From a virus (taxonomy: Duplodnaviria > Heunggongvirae > Uroviricota > Caudoviricetes), in the IMG/VR virus record IMGVR_UViG_2660238499_000006, positions 1 through 16,014 of that record: DNA of 16,014 bases; one strand, given 5' to 3'. The notes under the pieces were generated by a model. It was not told the DNA's origin. It saw nothing but the letters and a program-made list of their open reading frames with translations, and searched no databases. The number at the start of each line of letters is the position of its first letter. Within the stretch, counting starts at the first letter, position 1. Position numbers and translations under genes: made by a program. Positions 12,860 through 16,014 of the stretch are shown piece by piece.

Positions 12860-12956
12860 AAGGTTGCGCTACGTAAAATCTGTGAAAAATTGGCGGTGTC
12901 AGTCCTACAGATTTCGCGTAGCGCACTTAGCACCACCAATCAATCAGAGGTGAAAA

Positions 12957-13185: not shown

Positions 13186-14217
13186 ATGTCCAATTTACTG
13201 ACCGTACACCAAAATTTGCCTGCATTGCCGGTCGATGCAACGAGTGATGAGGTTCGCAAGAACCTGATGGACATGTTCAGGGATCGCCAGGCGTTTTCTG
13301 AGCATACCTGGAAAATGCTTCTGTCCGTTTGCCGGTCATGGGCGGCATGGTGCAAGTTGAATAACCGGAAATGGTTTCCCGCAGAACCTGAAGATGTTCG
13401 CGATTATCTTCTATATCTTCAGGCGCGCGGTCTGGCAGTGAAAACTATCCAGCAACATTTGGGCCAGCTAAATATGCTTCATCGTCGGTCCGGGCTGCAA
13501 CGACCAAGTGACAGCAATGCTGTTTCACTCGTCATGCGACGGATCCGAAAAGAAAACGTTGATGCCGGTGAGCGTGCAAAACAGGCGCTGGCGTTCGAAC
13601 GCACTGATTTCGACCAGGTTCGTTCACTCATGGAAAATAGCGATCGCTGCCAGGATATACGTAATCTGGCATTTCTGGGGATTGCTTATAACACCCTGTT
13701 ACGTATAGCCGAAATTTCTAGGATCAGAGTTAAAGATATCTCACGTACTGACGGTGGGAGAATGTTAATCCATATTGGCAGAACGAAAACGCTGGTTAGC
13801 ACCGCTGGTGTAGAGAAGGCACTTAGTCTGGGGGTAACTAAACTGGTTGAGCGATGGATTTCTGTCTCTGGTGTGGCTGATGATCCGAATAACTACTTGT
13901 TTTGCCGTGTCAGAAAAAATGGTGTTGCCGCGCCATCTGCCACCAGCCAGCTATCAACTCGCGCCCTGGAAGGGATTTTTGAAGCAACTCACCGATTGAT
14001 TTTCGGGGCTAAGGATGACTCTGGCCAGAGGTACCTGGCCTGGTCTGGACACAGTGCCCGTGTCGGAGCCGCGCGAGATATGGCCCGCGCCGGAGTTTCA
14101 ATACCGGAGATCATGCAAGCTGGTGGCTGGACCAACGTAAATATTGTCATGAACTATATCCGTAACCTGGATAGTGAAACAGGGGCAATGGTGCGCCTGC
14201 TGGAAGATGGCTATTAG
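13186..14217 (+). CDS. cre: Cre site-specific tyrosine recombinase, 343 aa
   Basis: MSNLLTVHQNLPALPVDATSDEVRKNLMDMFRDRQAFSEHTWKMLLSVCRSWAAWCKLNNRKWFPAEPEDVRDYLLYLQARGLAVKTIQQHLGQLNMLHRRSGL...; start lies 436 bp from the loxP centre, as in P1 numbering. Confidence 0.98.
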   Translation: MSNLLTVHQNLPALPVDATSDEVRKNLMDMFRDRQAFSEHTWKMLLSVCRSWAAWCKLNNRKWFPAEPEDVRDYLLYLQARGLAVKTIQQHLGQLNMLHRRSGLQRPSDSNAVSLVMRRIRKENVDAGERAKQALAFERTDFDQVRSLMENSDRCQDIRNLAFLGIAYNTLLRIAEISRIRVKDISRTDGGRMLIHIGRTKTLVSTAGVEKALSLGVTKLVERWISVSGVADDPNNYLFCRVRKNGVAAPSATSQLSTRALEGIFEATHRLIFGAKDDSGQRYLAWSGHSARVGAARDMARAGVSIPEIMQAGGWTNVNIVMNYIRNLDSETGAMVRLLEDGY

Positions 14218-14234
14218 CCATTAGCGCGCAAATG

Positions 14235-14251
14235 ATTGCTCTAATTCTTTG
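14235..14251 (+). promoter_or_regulatory. C1 operator (ATTGCTCTAATTCTTTG) just after the cre stop
   Basis: 11/11 core match. Confidence 0.6.
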
Positions 14252-14267
14252 GTATTTATGGTGACAT

Positions 14268-14579
14268 GTGAGAAAGGATTTCAACATCGACGGAAAATAT
14301 GTAGTGCTGTCTGTAAGCACTAATATTCAGTCGCCAGCCGTCATTGTCACTGTAAAGCTGAGCGATAGAATGCCTGATATTGACTCAATATCCGTTGCGT
14401 TCCCTGTCAAAAGTATGCGTAGTGCTGAACATTTCGTGATGAATGCCACCGAGAAAGAAGCACGGCGCGGTTTTGCCAAAGTGATGGCCGAGTTTGGCGA
14501 ATTTTTGGGGCACGTTGACAAAGCCCTTTCAATCAGTTCAGCAAGGTCCAAAGCGTTAACAGCTTCCATGCTGAAATAA
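14268..14579 (+). CDS. Hypothetical protein in the c8 position between cre and ref; weak start (GTG, no clear SD)
   Basis: 103-aa ORF. The coding call is uncertain because the adjacent terminator belongs to the opposite strand and the start context is poor. Confidence 0.3.
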   Translation: MRKDFNIDGKYVVLSVSTNIQSPAVIVTVKLSDRMPDIDSISVAFPVKSMRSAEHFVMNATEKEARRGFAKVMAEFGEFLGHVDKALSISSARSKALTASMLK

Positions 14580-14604
14580 AAAAAGCCTGGCAAGGAGCCA
14601 GGCT
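14574..14604 (-). terminator. Strong rho-independent terminator for a leftward (minus-strand) transcript
   Basis: 8-bp perfect stem agcctggc/gccaggct with loop aagga; on the minus strand it is followed by TTTTTTTATTT. Confidence 0.65.
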
Positions 14605-14709
14605 GCACAAAAGAGCGGGTTTGTATTCCGCATTCAATCAATCAAGAAGGAGTATAGTACACAGGTACTGAAGTGAAAAAATGTGATTCGCGATAAACAA
14701 ATAACTTTA

Positions 14710-14739
14710 ATTGCTCTAATTGATTGCTATAATTGAGCC
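14710..14739 (+). promoter_or_regulatory. Two overlapping C1 operators (ATTGCTCTAATTGATTG 14710-14726; ATTGCTATAATTGAGCC 14723-14739) with an embedded perfect -10 TATAAT (14728-14733)
   Basis: Operator cores and the -10 hexamer are read directly; the arrangement resembles the tandem C1 operators reported upstream of ref in P1. Confidence 0.65.
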
Positions 14740-14793
14740 GCAGTTTTTGTCAACTACGAAGACGTTGCCATTACTTCACTCCTTGACATCATT

Positions 14794-14819
14794 GGCGGCC
14801 ATTAGGCCGCCTTTTTTTT
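14794..14819 (+). terminator. Strong rho-independent terminator/attenuator ending 5 nt before the ref ATG
   Basis: 7-bp GC stem ggcggcc/ggccgcc, loop atta, followed by T8. Confidence 0.7.
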
Positions 14820-14824
14820 GCCAT

Positions 14825-15262
14825 ATGAAAACAATCGAACAAAAACTTGAACAGCGCCGCGAGTGGCAGAAGGCAGCCAGAGAACGAGCGATCGATCGGC
14901 AACGGGAAAAGTTGGCTGACCCCGCCTGGCGAGAATCGCAATATCAGAAAATGCGGGATTCTATCGACCGCCGTATCGCTAAACAGAAAGAGCGCCCACC
15001 AGCCAGCAAAACGCGGAAAAGTGCGGTAAAAATAAAATCTCGTGGCTTGAAGGGGCGAACACCGACGGCGGAGGAACGGACCATCGCCAATGCTCTTGGC
15101 ACTCTCCCCTGCATTGCCTGCTACATGCATGGAGTAATATCTGAAGAGGTGTCTCTGCACCATATCTCCGGTCGTACCGCGCCGGGTTGTCACAAAAAGC
15201 AATTGCCCCTTTGTAGATGGCACCACCAGCATGCAGCACCGGCTGAAGTAAGAGGGGTTTGA
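14825..15262 (+). pseudogene. ref: ref (recombination enhancement function, HNH-type nuclease), 3'-truncated by a Tn3-family insertion; the last codons and the stop come from the transposon inverted repeat
   Basis: MKTIEQKLEQRREWQKAARERAIDRQREK... with a Cys/His cluster (CIACYMHGVISEEVSLHHISGRTAPGCHKKQLPLCRWHH). The ORF is 145 aa against the 186 aa I recall for P1 Ref, and the frame runs into the IR starting at 15254. Confidence 0.6.
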
Positions 15263-15291
15263 GGGCCAATGATGTAAAAAACCACGCTAAG
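15254..15291. repeat. Tn3-family 38-bp terminal inverted repeat (GGGGTTTGAGGGCCAATGATGTAAAAAACCACGCTAAG)
   Basis: GGGG...ACGCTAAG architecture; the first 18 bp match the gamma-delta/Tn1000-type IR as I recall it. The tnpA stop codon (15287-15289) lies inside it, as is typical of Tn3-family elements. Confidence 0.8.
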
Positions 15292-15956
15292 GAGGTAATT
15301 CATTGTTTAAATTGAGATTTAACGGCCTCAATTCCCCCTTCATAATATCCTCCGGTAGTGTGAACGTATAATGTCCCAGCATGTTGATATGACCATGCAT
15401 CAGAGGCGAAAGCCGCGCGATATGTTCATCTTCTGGCCCTTCCCCAGTGCTACGCAGGTGCGACAAGGCTTCCTGCATATAAAGCGTATTCCACAGCACC
15501 ACTGCGTTTGTCACCAGACCCAGCGCACCCAACTGATCTTCCTGCCCCTCGCGGTAACGTTTTCTGATCTCACCACGCTGACCGTAGCAAATGGCTCTTG
15601 CCACGGCATGGCGACCTTCGCCCCGGTTAAGCTGTGTTAGGATCCTGCGGCGATAGTCCTCATCATCAATATAGTTGAGAAGATACAGTGTCTTGTTAAC
15701 TCTTCCGACCTCCATTATTGCCTGAGCAAGCCCTGACGGTCGGGTACTTCTCAATAGCGATCGAATGAGTTCTGACGCATGAATTGTGCCCAGCTTCAGC
15801 GAACCTGCAACCCGCATCATCTCATCCCAGTGGCTTTCGATTTTAGAAAGGTCAACACAACCCCGAGCCAGTTCGTCCAACGCCCCGTAATTCGCTGCTT
15901 TGTCAGCCCGCCAGAACACCGCCTCACCAGCATCCGCCAGACGAGGTGAAAATTGG
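15287..15956 (-). pseudogene. tnpA: Tn3-family transposase (TnpA), C-terminal ~220 codons only; 5' part removed by IS26
   Basis: Translation ...IESHWDEMMRVAGSLKLGTIHASELIRSL...LNYIDDEDYRRRILTQLNRGEG...LGLVTNAVVLWNTLYMQEAL...HINMLGHYTF matches the conserved Tn3-family TnpA C-terminus. The frame is cut at the IS26 boundary, with an in-frame stop inside IS26. Confidence 0.8.
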
Positions 15957-16014
15957 GGCACTGTTGCAAATAGTCGGTGGTGATAAACTTATCATCCCCT
16001 TTTGCTGATGGAGC
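15957..16014 (+). mobile_element. IS26 left end (IRL GGCACTGTTGCAAA plus 44 bp of leader), continuing beyond the window
   Basis: GGCACTGTTGCAAATAGTCGGTGGTGATAAACTTATCATCCCCTTTTGCTGATGGAGC matches the IS26 IRL and tnp26 upstream sequence from memory. Confidence 0.85.

Follow-up and report, generated by a model that had tools for sequence, protein, structure and literature searches.

A proposed ref attenuator and a candidate leftward small RNA in the c8-ref spacer of a P1-type plasmid prophage

Two strong intrinsic terminators, one on each strand, bracket a non-coding interval beside the phage gene ref, which raises the question of what transcripts they end. The interval lies near the right end of a 16,014-nucleotide stretch of Caudoviricetes DNA (IMG/VR record IMGVR_UViG_2660238499_000006), the whole of which is referred to here as the window. 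With 98% identity to phage P1 over positions 14540-14860, the interval can be identified as the spacer between c8 and ref in a plasmid prophage of the P1 type. On its left lies c8 (14268..14579, + strand), annotated as a putative lysogeny-establishment gene and showing a coding-type diversity across codon positions, with its stop codon at 14577-14579. On its right lies ref (14825..15262, + strand), which encodes a RecA-dependent nuclease and is 95% identical to P1 ref. The gene is cut by the end of a Tn3-family transposon, represented by a transposase C-terminus at 15287-15961 on the - strand. This truncation is the only difference between the right arm of the window and that of P1; the operator, both annotated promoters, the hairpin with its T8 and the ref start are unchanged. 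P1 is widely used in bacterial genetics, for transduction and Cre-lox; plasmid prophages related to it are common and carry resistance genes, and the Ref nuclease sensitises lysogens to ciprofloxacin. We consider it rather probable that the spacer holds two back-to-back units that point apart, each with its own intrinsic terminator: a rightward attenuator and a leftward regulatory RNA candidate.

To identify terminators we used strict criteria of seven perfect base pairs with at least five GC, followed by at least 7 T among the next 8 nucleotides. Only two sites on both strands of the 16-kb window qualified, and 60 dinucleotide shuffles yielded none. The rightward terminator (14794..14819, + strand) consists of seven GC pairs and an ATTA loop, GGCGGCC-ATTA-GGCCGCC at 14794-14811, followed by T8 at 14812-14819, and has a hairpin energy of -16.2 kcal/mol. 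The leftward terminator (14577..14604, - strand) consists of AGCCTGGC-TCCTT-GCCAGGCT, an 8-bp stem at 14604-14584 followed by seven T (U7 in the RNA, 14583-14577) that adjoin the c8 stop codon, and has an energy of -15.7 kcal/mol. Both had been pointed out in a first-pass annotation of this DNA, the former as a 7-bp GC stem with T8 ending 5 nt before the ref ATG (14825) and the latter as a - strand terminator left of the operator, and both descriptions hold. Neither terminator is entered as a feature in the GenBank P1 record.

The rightward unit is largely annotated in P1, where the record (AF234172/NC_005856) places P2ref, Oref, P1ref and ref in this region. Oref (14710..14726, + strand), the C1 repressor operator annotated in both P1 and P7, matches the asymmetric 17-nt C1 consensus ATTGCTCTAATAAATTT with 3 mismatches, for which the chance expectation is 0.07 per window, and it overlaps P2ref. 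The extended -10 element of P2ref (TGcTATAAT, 14725..14733, + strand) includes the TATAAT at 14728-14733 that had been proposed to fire rightward; that element is present and is the P2ref of the P1 annotation. Tandem operators had also been proposed, and of these only Oref stands. The second, a partial operator-like repeat at 14723..14739 (+ strand) whose core ATTGCTATAAT doubles as the P2ref -10 region, has 1 mismatch in its 11-nt core and 6 across the 17 nt. Neither the P1 nor the P7 record annotates it as an operator, and AF234172 words Oref as a monovalent C1 controlled operator, as does the P7 record. The TGnTATAAT of P2ref is retained with n = C, T or A in most variants, and in the divergent lineages TGTATAAT overlaps their operator. 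A second promoter, P1ref (TGaCATCAT, 14784..14792, + strand; -35 TTGCCA at 14765-14770), is labelled "predicted" in the P1 annotation and is also found by our promoter scan. H-NS binds the ref 5' region, and CGATAAA at 14691..14697 (+ strand) is the nucleation site reported there (PMC4713147).

Between P2ref and the hairpin lies a leader of ~54 nt (14740..14793, + strand) with intermediate diversity (π = 0.028). The leader contains a reading frame that is open from 14720 and has 4 in-frame TTG codons, but among relatives this frame is disrupted by 1-nt and 5-nt indels and by changes in T-run length. Because these indels break the frame, we rejected both a leader peptide and an N-terminal extension of Ref. 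No conserved helix other than the terminator was found in the leader, and the lineage comparison recovered no conserved antiterminator helix. A 5' leader hairpin in the minimum-free-energy fold (14740-14768) was discarded, since its 5' side varies without compensation and RNAalifold did not recover it. An antiterminator pairing between GCCGC (14737-41) and the 5' arm of the terminator was likewise set aside because it varies and lies for the most part 5' of the probable start. The GUCA...UGAC motifs in this region are conserved and may pair, but they are too short to judge. Downstream of the hairpin, the absence of a visible Shine-Dalgarno sequence (SD) for ref had been remarked on before, and indeed no purine-rich SD occurs within 20 nt 5' of the ATG. 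The start itself, MK(T/L).., is common to distant Ref homologues that possess an SD.

The attenuator stem is invariant across ~180 loci, with a loop that occurs in five forms, and all three stem variants give G-U pairs in the + strand RNA only. Additionally, 2 of the 7 pairs show compensatory changes in divergent lineages whose Ref is 65-68% identical. By this pattern of substitution, the ref hairpin is under selection at the RNA level, on the + strand. The order of operator, extended -10, leader, hairpin with T-run and start codon is retained at 65-68% Ref identity; promoter, hairpin and ref start follow one another in this way in L213, L214, L216, L227 and L190, and a Pantoea locus (Ref 61%) has the operator, a short leader and the terminator. 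Ref homologues at 55% identity or less are without such an attenuator. Thus, a GC hairpin with a U-tract sits between promoter and start codon and is selected as RNA, which supports the attenuator-type layout that the first-pass annotation had suggested for ref.

That idea was already in print, since the title of Windle, Laufer and Hays (J Bacteriol 1988) states "attenuator-antiterminator control" of ref. As far as this title goes, the rightward unit is known and its attenuator is the one proposed in 1988; for a P1 antiterminator the wording in the literature is "no direct experimental evidence". New for the right arm are the compensatory changes in the hairpin and the existence of P1-like contigs (~14%) that have the unit and lack ref. 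In 14 of 102 contigs homology stops exactly after the T-run, and in E. albertii plasmids without ref it likewise ends right after the T-run. Because the stretch from promoter to terminator is kept without ref, it forms a self-contained unit. The comparative data indicate that the attenuator is ancient.

On the left arm, the only leftward promoter-like site lies at 14679-14651. In the P1 consensus its extended -10 element (14651..14659, - strand; promoter scan) is made up of TATACT at 14656-14651 and TG at 14659-14658, and is preceded by a weak -35, TTTTCA at 14679-14674, that is not constant among sequences, which is typical of extended -10 promoters. In the window, a private T at 14658 destroys the TG. 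The TGnTATACT element is retained in the divergent lineages L216, L219 and L227, among which the 7-nt discriminator differs. The predicted +1 is G14643, 7 nt past the -10 element, and transcription from there through the U-tract would give a candidate non-coding sRNA (14577..14643, - strand) of 67 nt in the window and 65-71 nt in relatives.

The candidate RNA is ordered as a single-stranded 5' seed, a middle hairpin, a GUGCAGCC linker, the terminator hairpin and the U-tract. The seed (14634..14643, - strand) has the consensus GAUUGAUUGG and reads GAUUGAUUGA in the window because of a private T at 14634; this change excepted, it is invariant in all lineages. The middle hairpin (14615..14631, - strand) has the form GCGG-loop-CCGC in the P1 type. 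Its sequence is unrelated between P1, L216/L219 and L227, yet every type still folds there. The P1-type variants L218 and L244 differ in it by point changes, and variation within the P1 type is confined to the loop or yields G-U or new pairs. The terminator is paired in 8/8 sequence types (100%). One of its pairs has changed in a compensatory manner, from U-A to C-G, and two one-sided changes (G-C to G-U and C-G to U-G) preserve pairing only in the - strand RNA. The fold of the whole candidate is more stable than expected in six of six sequence types (z = -3.0 to -3.6). The Salmonella-type block keeps TGnTATACT, an identical GAUUGAUUGG, GUGCAGCC and the terminator with its compensatory pair, with a different 7-nt discriminator and an unrelated middle hairpin.

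To assess conservation, we compared 61 distinct sequences that were picked via Ref and hence independently of the RNA block. Positions 14584-14663 contain non-singleton variable sites at 1/80 positions (π 0.005), compared with 46/103 at c8 third codon positions (π 0.17) and 16/46 in the adjacent spacer. The Fisher P value for the block is highest against c8 positions 1+2 (3e-4) and lowest against c8 third positions (4e-13), and it is 3e-5 or lower in every silent-site or spacer comparison; these statistics count kin genomes, as the P1-type sequences are closely related, and about three independent lineages carry the block. Within 1.2 kb, conservation is highest from the promoter to the U-tract. 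When P1-type sequences are set against the divergent lineages, similarity starts precisely at the predicted +1. For the neighbouring gene, a word-indexed search returned no C8 homologue below 82% identity, and a homologue ~45% identical was later found at the Salmonella-type locus L216.

The features expected of an sRNA are thus present as a prediction: a promoter and a terminator 67 nt apart, a conserved seed and a variable, structured body. The only ORF in the candidate RNA encodes 25 aa (14633-14556, - strand) and passes through the terminator, and an A-run length polymorphism of 5-9 breaks its frame. On both grounds we rejected this hydrophobic ORF as a small toxin. A boxA-like CGCUCUUU was dismissed because it is not conserved across lineages. 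A lambda-type nut site, for which a conserved boxA core GCUCUUU beside a hairpin would be expected, was likewise unsupported: the - strand RNA carries CGCUCUUUU, but L218 and L244 have CGCUAUUUU in its place, and L216, L219 and L227 lack it. Rfam gave no family at 14578-14652, with SorX the best match (22.4 bits; threshold 46.6), and the literature searched contained no report of a leftward RNA of ~66 nt. We regard the leftward terminator as real, and judging by the conservation and pairing described above it most likely ends a conserved, unannotated RNA of ~66 nt, which is a computational candidate.

The complement of the seed, CCAATCAATC, occurs in four extra copies in P1, compared with 0.17-0.33 expected (P ~4e-4). 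Only 99 of ~154,000 distinct P1 10-mers reach 5 copies, the commonest of them belonging to C1 operators and to Chi (GCTGGTGG). Of the four P1 boxes, three are sense-strand sites at translation starts (cra, pmgT and pmgS), and the fourth lies away from any start codon. In the window, the cra box (12936..12945, + strand) precedes an AGAGGTG SD by 1 nt and the cra ATG (12957) by 12 nt. Two extra boxes each were found in L222 (0.04 expected) and L227 (0.025 expected), all four at or just 5' of start codons; one of these sits past the ref attenuator and ahead of the ref ATG. Across P1, L222 and L227, 7/8 boxes thus occupy sense-strand positions at a start codon or immediately 5' of one. When we scanned along the 67-nt RNA, more than one extra copy was obtained only for the 5' 10-mer and for one A-rich 10-mer. 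The repeats of the latter, ACAAAAGAGC, all fall within ORFs in P1 and share no common context, and we judged them to be chance.

Predicted duplex energies agree with this distribution at two of the boxes. The seed duplexes at pmgT and cra reach -17.2 and -16.6 kcal/mol, respectively, with the following match at -12.0 kcal/mol; the cra duplex is second best among 82 P1 translation-start regions, and 1.7% of shuffled seeds match the best real energy. The first 41 nt as a whole (seed, middle hairpin and linker) gave no significant result against P1 start regions (P ~0.1). As a direct target in P1 and in the window, ref was rejected, since its match is 7 bp including a G-U pair and ranks 31. None of the lineages found combines a changed seed with matching changes in its boxes, so true seed-target covariation is missing; scans of metagenomes and further viral sequences added no new lineage and no seed variant, and the private seed change of the window is unmatched in its cra box. 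From the boxes and duplex energies, the candidate RNA appears to target several P1 genes.

Several other readings of the spacer were weighed against this one. The first-pass annotation had seen a divergent C1-operator-controlled promoter firing two short C1-regulated RNAs of 80-130 nt. Oref and the TATAAT are real, there is a terminator on either side, and a terminated rightward leader of ~72-80 nt is plausible. However, the sole leftward promoter-like site, at 14679-14651, does not overlap the operator but is set off from it by 55-70 bp to the left, and Oref falls at about -67 to -83 relative to the predicted leftward start (14643). In the divergent lineages, moreover, the RNA gene has no operator adjoining it, and its distance to the ref operator is ~1.5 kb in L216/L222 and ~2 kb in L227. 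Because of this distance and separation, C1 control of the left arm is unsupported, and the leftward RNA is instead predicted at ~66 nt, from an operator-free promoter. One divergent promoter pair thus strikes us as very improbable. We hold it unlikely, though less so, that the hairpin with T8 mainly terminates cra-cre-c8 and P2ref transcripts while ref is expressed chiefly from P1ref. A transcript from P1ref would begin within the 5' arm of the hairpin and could therefore not form the terminator, and RNA begun there would have an unstructured leader (-3.8 kcal/mol). Furthermore, c8 is without a + strand terminator of its own before 14794, and the extended -10 TGnCATCAT is kept in P1-type and ref-less variants. 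Against this, P1ref is missing where Ref identity is 65-68% and the operator-leader-hairpin layout is conserved, so we set P1ref aside as a conserved bypass of the hairpin, it being specific to the P1 type. In addition, C1 inactivation induces ref 73-fold (PMC4713147), which points to an operator-controlled promoter 5' of the hairpin. This reading is in any case compatible with attenuation rather than exclusive of it.

The leftward terminator could also be a mere backstop against transcription from the right that would run antisense into c8 and cre, the incoming transcription being read-through from res/mod or, in ref-less variants, from the c4-icd-ant operon. The conserved block would then be a DNA-level or + strand element, and CCAATCAATC a + strand translational enhancer or protein site upstream of ribosome-binding sites, with one further copy present by coincidence in the block. 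In ref-less variants the whole c4-icd-ant operon does converge on the region; the GC hairpin has no T-run on the - strand, and the next - strand terminator is that at 14577-14604. An SD also lies 1-8 nt downstream of most boxes, and the copy in the P1 block has AAGAAGGAG behind it. Yet no start codon follows the block copy, and the SD-like run is not preserved in L216 and L227 (GCGAATGAG and GCGAACGAG). A backstop would need just the hairpin and T-run, which leaves unexplained both the 40-nt invariance through the extended -10 and the onset of conservation at the predicted +1 despite a differing 7-nt discriminator, and the stem substitutions preserve pairing solely in the - strand RNA. We therefore give this explanation a low probability, about equal to that of expression chiefly from P1ref. 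Least credible by a wide distance is that both features are chance hairpins of an AT-rich spacer. Loose terminator and promoter scans do return counts near those of shuffled sequence, and the promoter-like matches taken alone are near chance level. However, the two strict sites stand alone in 16 kb with none in the shuffles, no other non-coding segment of the region varies as little, and compensatory changes occur at both, so that conservation and covariation refute this reading.

Under the two-unit arrangement, C1 bound to Oref would occlude the extended -10 promoter P2ref. Once C1 is lost, a leader of ~72-80 nt would be made and polymerase would mostly stop at the GC hairpin with U8. Only read-through transcripts would carry ref, with its SD-less start directly behind the hairpin. 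The RecA-dependent nuclease would thus be kept low at three levels, by the repressor, the attenuator and poor initiation. Leftward, the operator-free extended -10 promoter (14651-14659) would start at G14643, and the ~66-nt RNA would end at its hairpin and U7. Its single-stranded 5' GAUUGAUUGG could then pair with CCAAUCAAUC boxes at or just before ribosome-binding sites. In P1 the predicted targets comprise the leader of cra, that of pmgT (itself under C1 control) and early pmgS; in divergent lineages they are other first genes and, in one lineage, ref itself. Pairing with the boxes would most likely block access of the 30S subunit, which would be a post-transcriptional layer above C1.

We tentatively propose, as a possibility somewhat short of even, that P1-family phage-plasmids have a second regulatory RNA, a constitutive trans-acting sRNA with a small regulon that is tied indirectly to the lysis-lysogeny switch. 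Its members would be the leaders of cra(-cre) and pmgT together with pmgS, and in some lineages also ref, just past its attenuator. C1-controlled transcription of c8 crosses the RNA gene antisense and could silence the RNA upon induction, by interference or as a sponge. Such silencing by c8 read-through would provide the indirect link between the regulon and the switch.

The candidate invites comparison with three kinds of known RNA. Lambda OOP RNA is 77 nt long, has its own promoter and intrinsic terminator, and is antisense to cII, which it overlaps. Similar to OOP, the candidate is a short RNA of a phage, has a promoter and terminator of its own and runs from the downstream spacer toward the 3' end of a lysogeny-establishment gene. 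Unlike the cis-antisense OOP, it would halt at the c8 stop codon with an overlap of at most 3 nt, and it is complementary to c8 read-through RNA only. Matches between its invariant 5' end and boxes at other sites in the genome point instead to a role in trans. The 5'-seed, Hfq-type sRNAs of enterobacteria include RybB and OmrA/B, and some such RNAs are prophage-encoded, e.g. DicF. The candidate resembles the RybB and OmrA/B class in its size of ~70 nt, its own predicted sigma-70 promoter, its conserved single-stranded 5' seed, its variable middle hairpin, its U-rich stretch and its terminator with a poly-U tail. It is also predicted to resemble them in having several targets at ribosome-binding sites with ~10 nt of perfect complementarity. 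It differs from that class in that the predicted targets are the phage's own genes and in having no similarity to an Rfam family, either in sequence or by covariance model.

To our knowledge, P1 has one known regulatory RNA, the C4 antisense RNA of P1 and P7 (RF01695). C4 arises by processing of the immI operon transcript and exerts its effect on that same transcript, where base pairing regulates how lytic or anti-repressor functions are translated. Like C4, the candidate is predicted to be a small RNA of the same phage that controls translation by base pairing, but its sequence, location and predicted targets all differ. Rfam found C4 in related loci (70.7 and 71.7 bits) and nothing at 14577-14643. 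If our reading of the left arm is true, it would be only the second P1 regulatory RNA after C4, and its seed-and-box regulon would take in the cra-cre operon through its leader. About 11% of complete E. coli genomes carry P1-family phage-plasmids, and the block itself is found, unannotated and at 95% identity or higher, in 615/5,426 complete genomes of this species.

Positions 13186–15262 of the window cover the cre-c8-ref part of a plasmid prophage of the phage P1 type (P1 coordinate + 12748 = window coordinate). A 1071-nt query was 95% identical to P1, P7, SJ46 and RCS47, and the 321 nt surrounding the features described here share 98% identity with canonical P1, the operator and both hairpins being unaltered. 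A 454-kb E. coli plasmid, an IncHI1B/IncY cointegrate with IS26 and Tn3-family elements, matches the 401 nt at 14500–14900 with 100% identity. Here, ref is interrupted at ~15262 by a Tn3-family transposon end (15257–15961). Among plasmids, four distinct insertion points of Tn3-family/Tn21-type ends fall within this short region: in ref in the window and in P7 (record position 2619), in the ref leader of pPK8568 (~14775 equivalent) and in the candidate RNA promoter of pE94-3 (~14650 equivalent). The c8–ref region looks like a recurrent target of transposon insertion.

The first-pass annotation placed C1-controlled divergent promoters between two strong terminators, with short RNAs or an attenuator before ref as possible outcomes, and the underlying observation was confirmed. 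TATAAT is present at 14728–14733, the plus-strand terminator (GGCGGCC-ATTA-GGCCGCC, 14794–14811) is followed by T8 to 14819, and no SD precedes the ref ATG at 14825. The minus-strand hairpin, AGCCTGGC-TCCTT-GCCAGGCT (14604–14584), runs into a T7 tract that ends at 14577 and touches the c8 stop codon. These two terminators are the sole strict-criteria matches on both strands of the 16-kb window, and none arose in 60 dinucleotide shuffles. The C1 consensus match at 14710–14726 is significant; the proposed second, tandem operator matches the 11-nt core only, and the P1 record labels Oref monovalent. C1 control of a leftward promoter was not supported, as the sole leftward promoter-like site (14679–14651) lies 55–70 bp from Oref. 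Overall, the interpretation was partly right, though already published for the right (plus-strand) arm; the left arm differs from what was claimed.

The P1 GenBank record annotates P2ref (whose -10 is the window TATAAT), Oref, a predicted second promoter P1ref (14765–14792) and ref. A 1988 paper, by its title, proposes attenuator-antiterminator control of ref. Later work reports a 73-fold rise in ref once C1 is inactivated, and binding of H-NS to CGATAAA in the ref 5' region, here 14691–14697 (PMC4713147), and a 2023 paper still finds "no direct experimental evidence" of a P1 antitermination protein. Thus, the attenuation idea matches a proposal already in print.

Comparison across elements supplied further detail on this arm. 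P2ref is of the extended -10 type (TGnTATAAT, n variable), and P1ref is restricted to the P1 type. In ~180 P1-like loci the attenuator stem is constant save for three variants, all G-U only in the plus-strand RNA; five loop forms occur, and T-runs are 5–10 T long. Salmonella and Klebsiella elements with Ref 65–68% identical keep the P1 order of operator, TGTATAAT, ~50-nt leader, hairpin with T-run, 10–14 nt and start codon; aligned to the P1 hairpin, their GACGGTC/GACCGTC hairpin has 2 of 7 pairs compensatory. A Pantoea element (Ref 61%) likewise has operator, short leader and terminator. More distant Ref genes lack the attenuator and have an SD, and their SD and start confirm the MK.. start codon of Ref. 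RNAalifold gave no conserved ref-leader helix besides the terminator, and the leader's reading frame is not maintained. Two motifs persist across lineages amid otherwise different leader sequence (14748–14754 and 14779–14788 in the window; also the ref leaders of the comparison loci L214, L216 and L227): TGTCA(A)C, and CTCC(Y)(Y)TGAC immediately 5' of the hairpin. Their GUCA and UGAC could pair, which in divergent lineages would include part of the terminator 5' arm; no compensatory support for this pairing was found.

Some elements lose homology exactly past the attenuator T-run (14 of 102 IMG/VR contigs, and E. albertii plasmids); there, a convergent c4-icd-ant operon stands in place of ref. 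Because operator, promoter, leader and hairpin are retained where ref is replaced, the promoter-to-terminator unit is a module in its own right. In this ref-less P1-like subfamily (L002, 1501–3317; L123, 1–2700; 13 further IMG/VR loci), the operon that runs towards the hairpin from its far side is a complete immI operon (C4 RNA, icd, kilAC-type ant), and the hairpin has a GAAA, TAAA or GCAA loop on the same stem as elsewhere.

The left arm is best described as a candidate minus-strand RNA gene (14577–14643, predicted +1 at G14643). Its promoter-like site is TTTTCA-17-TATACT, with an extended -10 TG in the canonical P1 copy. Among 61 distinct sequences gathered via Ref rather than via this block, 1 of the 80 sites in the promoter-to-U-tract stretch 14584–14663 shows non-singleton variation (π 0.005). 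The corresponding counts are 46 of 103 (π 0.17), 26 of 105 and 20 of 92 for third positions of c8, cre and ref, respectively, and 16 of 46 for the spacer next to the block. Fisher P values against these classes range from 3e-5 to 4e-13, and against c8 codon positions 1+2 P is 3e-4. The sequences compared are mutually related, and the lineages that carry the block number only about three. Variation in the block is restricted to hairpin loops and A-run length. The window copy has two private changes, T14634 (position 10 of the predicted seed) and T14658 (loss of the extended -10 TG), both absent from the other 66 distinct sequences of a Ref-anchored comparison, which fits decay in a transposon-ridden cointegrate. 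Of 5,426 complete E. coli genomes, 615 contain the block, and none annotates it as RNA.

A diverged homologue of the block is found in Salmonella-type elements (L216/L222, L219, L227), where it sits after c8 and an extra, hydrophobic 52-aa ORF, 1.5 kb from the ref operator. It retains TGnTATACT; a 7-nt discriminator of other sequence comes next, and the predicted +1 coincides exactly with the start of GATTGATTGG. The middle hairpin is of unrelated sequence, still folds, and is followed by GTGCAGCC. In the terminator, one pair is compensatory (U-A to C-G) and one G-U is viable on the minus strand only. Judged from sequence, this anatomy is that of a 65–71-nt non-coding RNA gene. Rfam holds no family for the candidate, and no mention of it was found in the searchable literature. 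The left arm probably represents a small RNA that is new but belongs to a familiar class, in a phage that has been studied very closely.

The complement of the RNA's 5' 10 nt (seed, 14634–14643), CCAATCAATC, has four further copies ("boxes") in the 88-kb P1 genome, where 0.17 (uniform) or 0.33 (first-order Markov) are expected (P ~4e-4). Five copies are reached by only 99 of ~154,000 distinct P1 10-mers; the commonest are C1-operator sequences and, by their GCTGGTGG core, Chi. One box lies 1 nt 5' of the cra SD in the P3cre leader (window copy 12936–12945), and another in the leader of the pmgT transcript, controlled by the C1 operator Op88, with AGGAG and an in-frame ATG directly after. The third spans pmgS codons 7–10. 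The fourth (P1 OP279344, minus strand, 69788) is antisense to the dbn 3' end, 176 nt past the gene 5 stop codon, with no annotated start codon nearby. Across 82 P1 start regions, predicted seed duplexes were strongest at pmgT (-17.2 kcal/mol) and cra (-16.6), all others being -12.0 or weaker; 1.7% of shuffled seeds matched the best real energy. Scanning the P1 start regions with the candidate RNA's 5' 41 nt gave no significant result.

Both seed and boxes are kept in divergent lineages, and no seed-box covariation was found among those compared. L222 has two boxes (0.04 expected), 5' of the two genes that come first after coi. L227 also has two (0.025 expected), one 5' of its first gene and the other between the ref attenuator and ref start, ...GACCGTC TTTTTTTT GGG CCAATCAATC ATG. 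The two halves of the region are thus connected in L227; this does not hold for P1 or the window, since ref comes only 31st there among the predicted targets. The pmgT leader (P1 OP279344 80550–80670; AF234172 84293–84395) has the same layout as the L227 ref leader: Op88 and promoter, hairpin ACATGCCGC-AAGGC-GCGGCATGT with TTT, CCAATCAATC, AGGAG and ATG. Since this ATG is in frame and 96 nt 5' of the annotated pmgT start, that annotation may be wrong.

It is unlikely that the leftward terminator is simply a backstop and the box a plus-strand motif, since such a reading leaves unexplained both the conserved promoter and why conservation sets in precisely at +1. The sequences themselves show the anatomy, its conservation and covariation, and the motif statistics. 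For the small RNA, we infer expression from an operator-free promoter and pairing of the 5' end with boxes adjoining ribosome-binding sites, most likely blocking initiation. On the right arm, Oref-bound C1 would block P2ref; upon derepression, most transcripts would stop at the attenuator as a ~72–80-nt leader and the remainder would carry SD-less, poorly translated ref, a low output that would suit a toxic nuclease.

The adjacent c8 gene (14268–14579) also appears to be under C1 control. A C1-operator-like site with a perfect 11-nt core, ATTGCTCTAATTCTTTG, which the P1 record does not list as an operator, lies at 14235–14251, 17–33 nt 5' of the c8 start. It is kept in about all 67 P1-like variants, the 15 nt on its left being hypervariable, and a better copy, ATTGCTCTAATAATTTT, lies 5' of the c8 homologue in L216, which suggests that c8 is C1-controlled. 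As c8 lacks a dedicated terminator anywhere short of 14794, its induced transcription would run antisense through the RNA gene and, more speculatively, could lower or sponge the RNA. Few relatives of C8 are detectable: a word-indexed search of 5.8 billion proteins returned none below 82% identity, and just one diverged C8 (~45% identical) turned up, in L216. The start of c8 differs by gene caller, giving 103, 91 or 69 aa.
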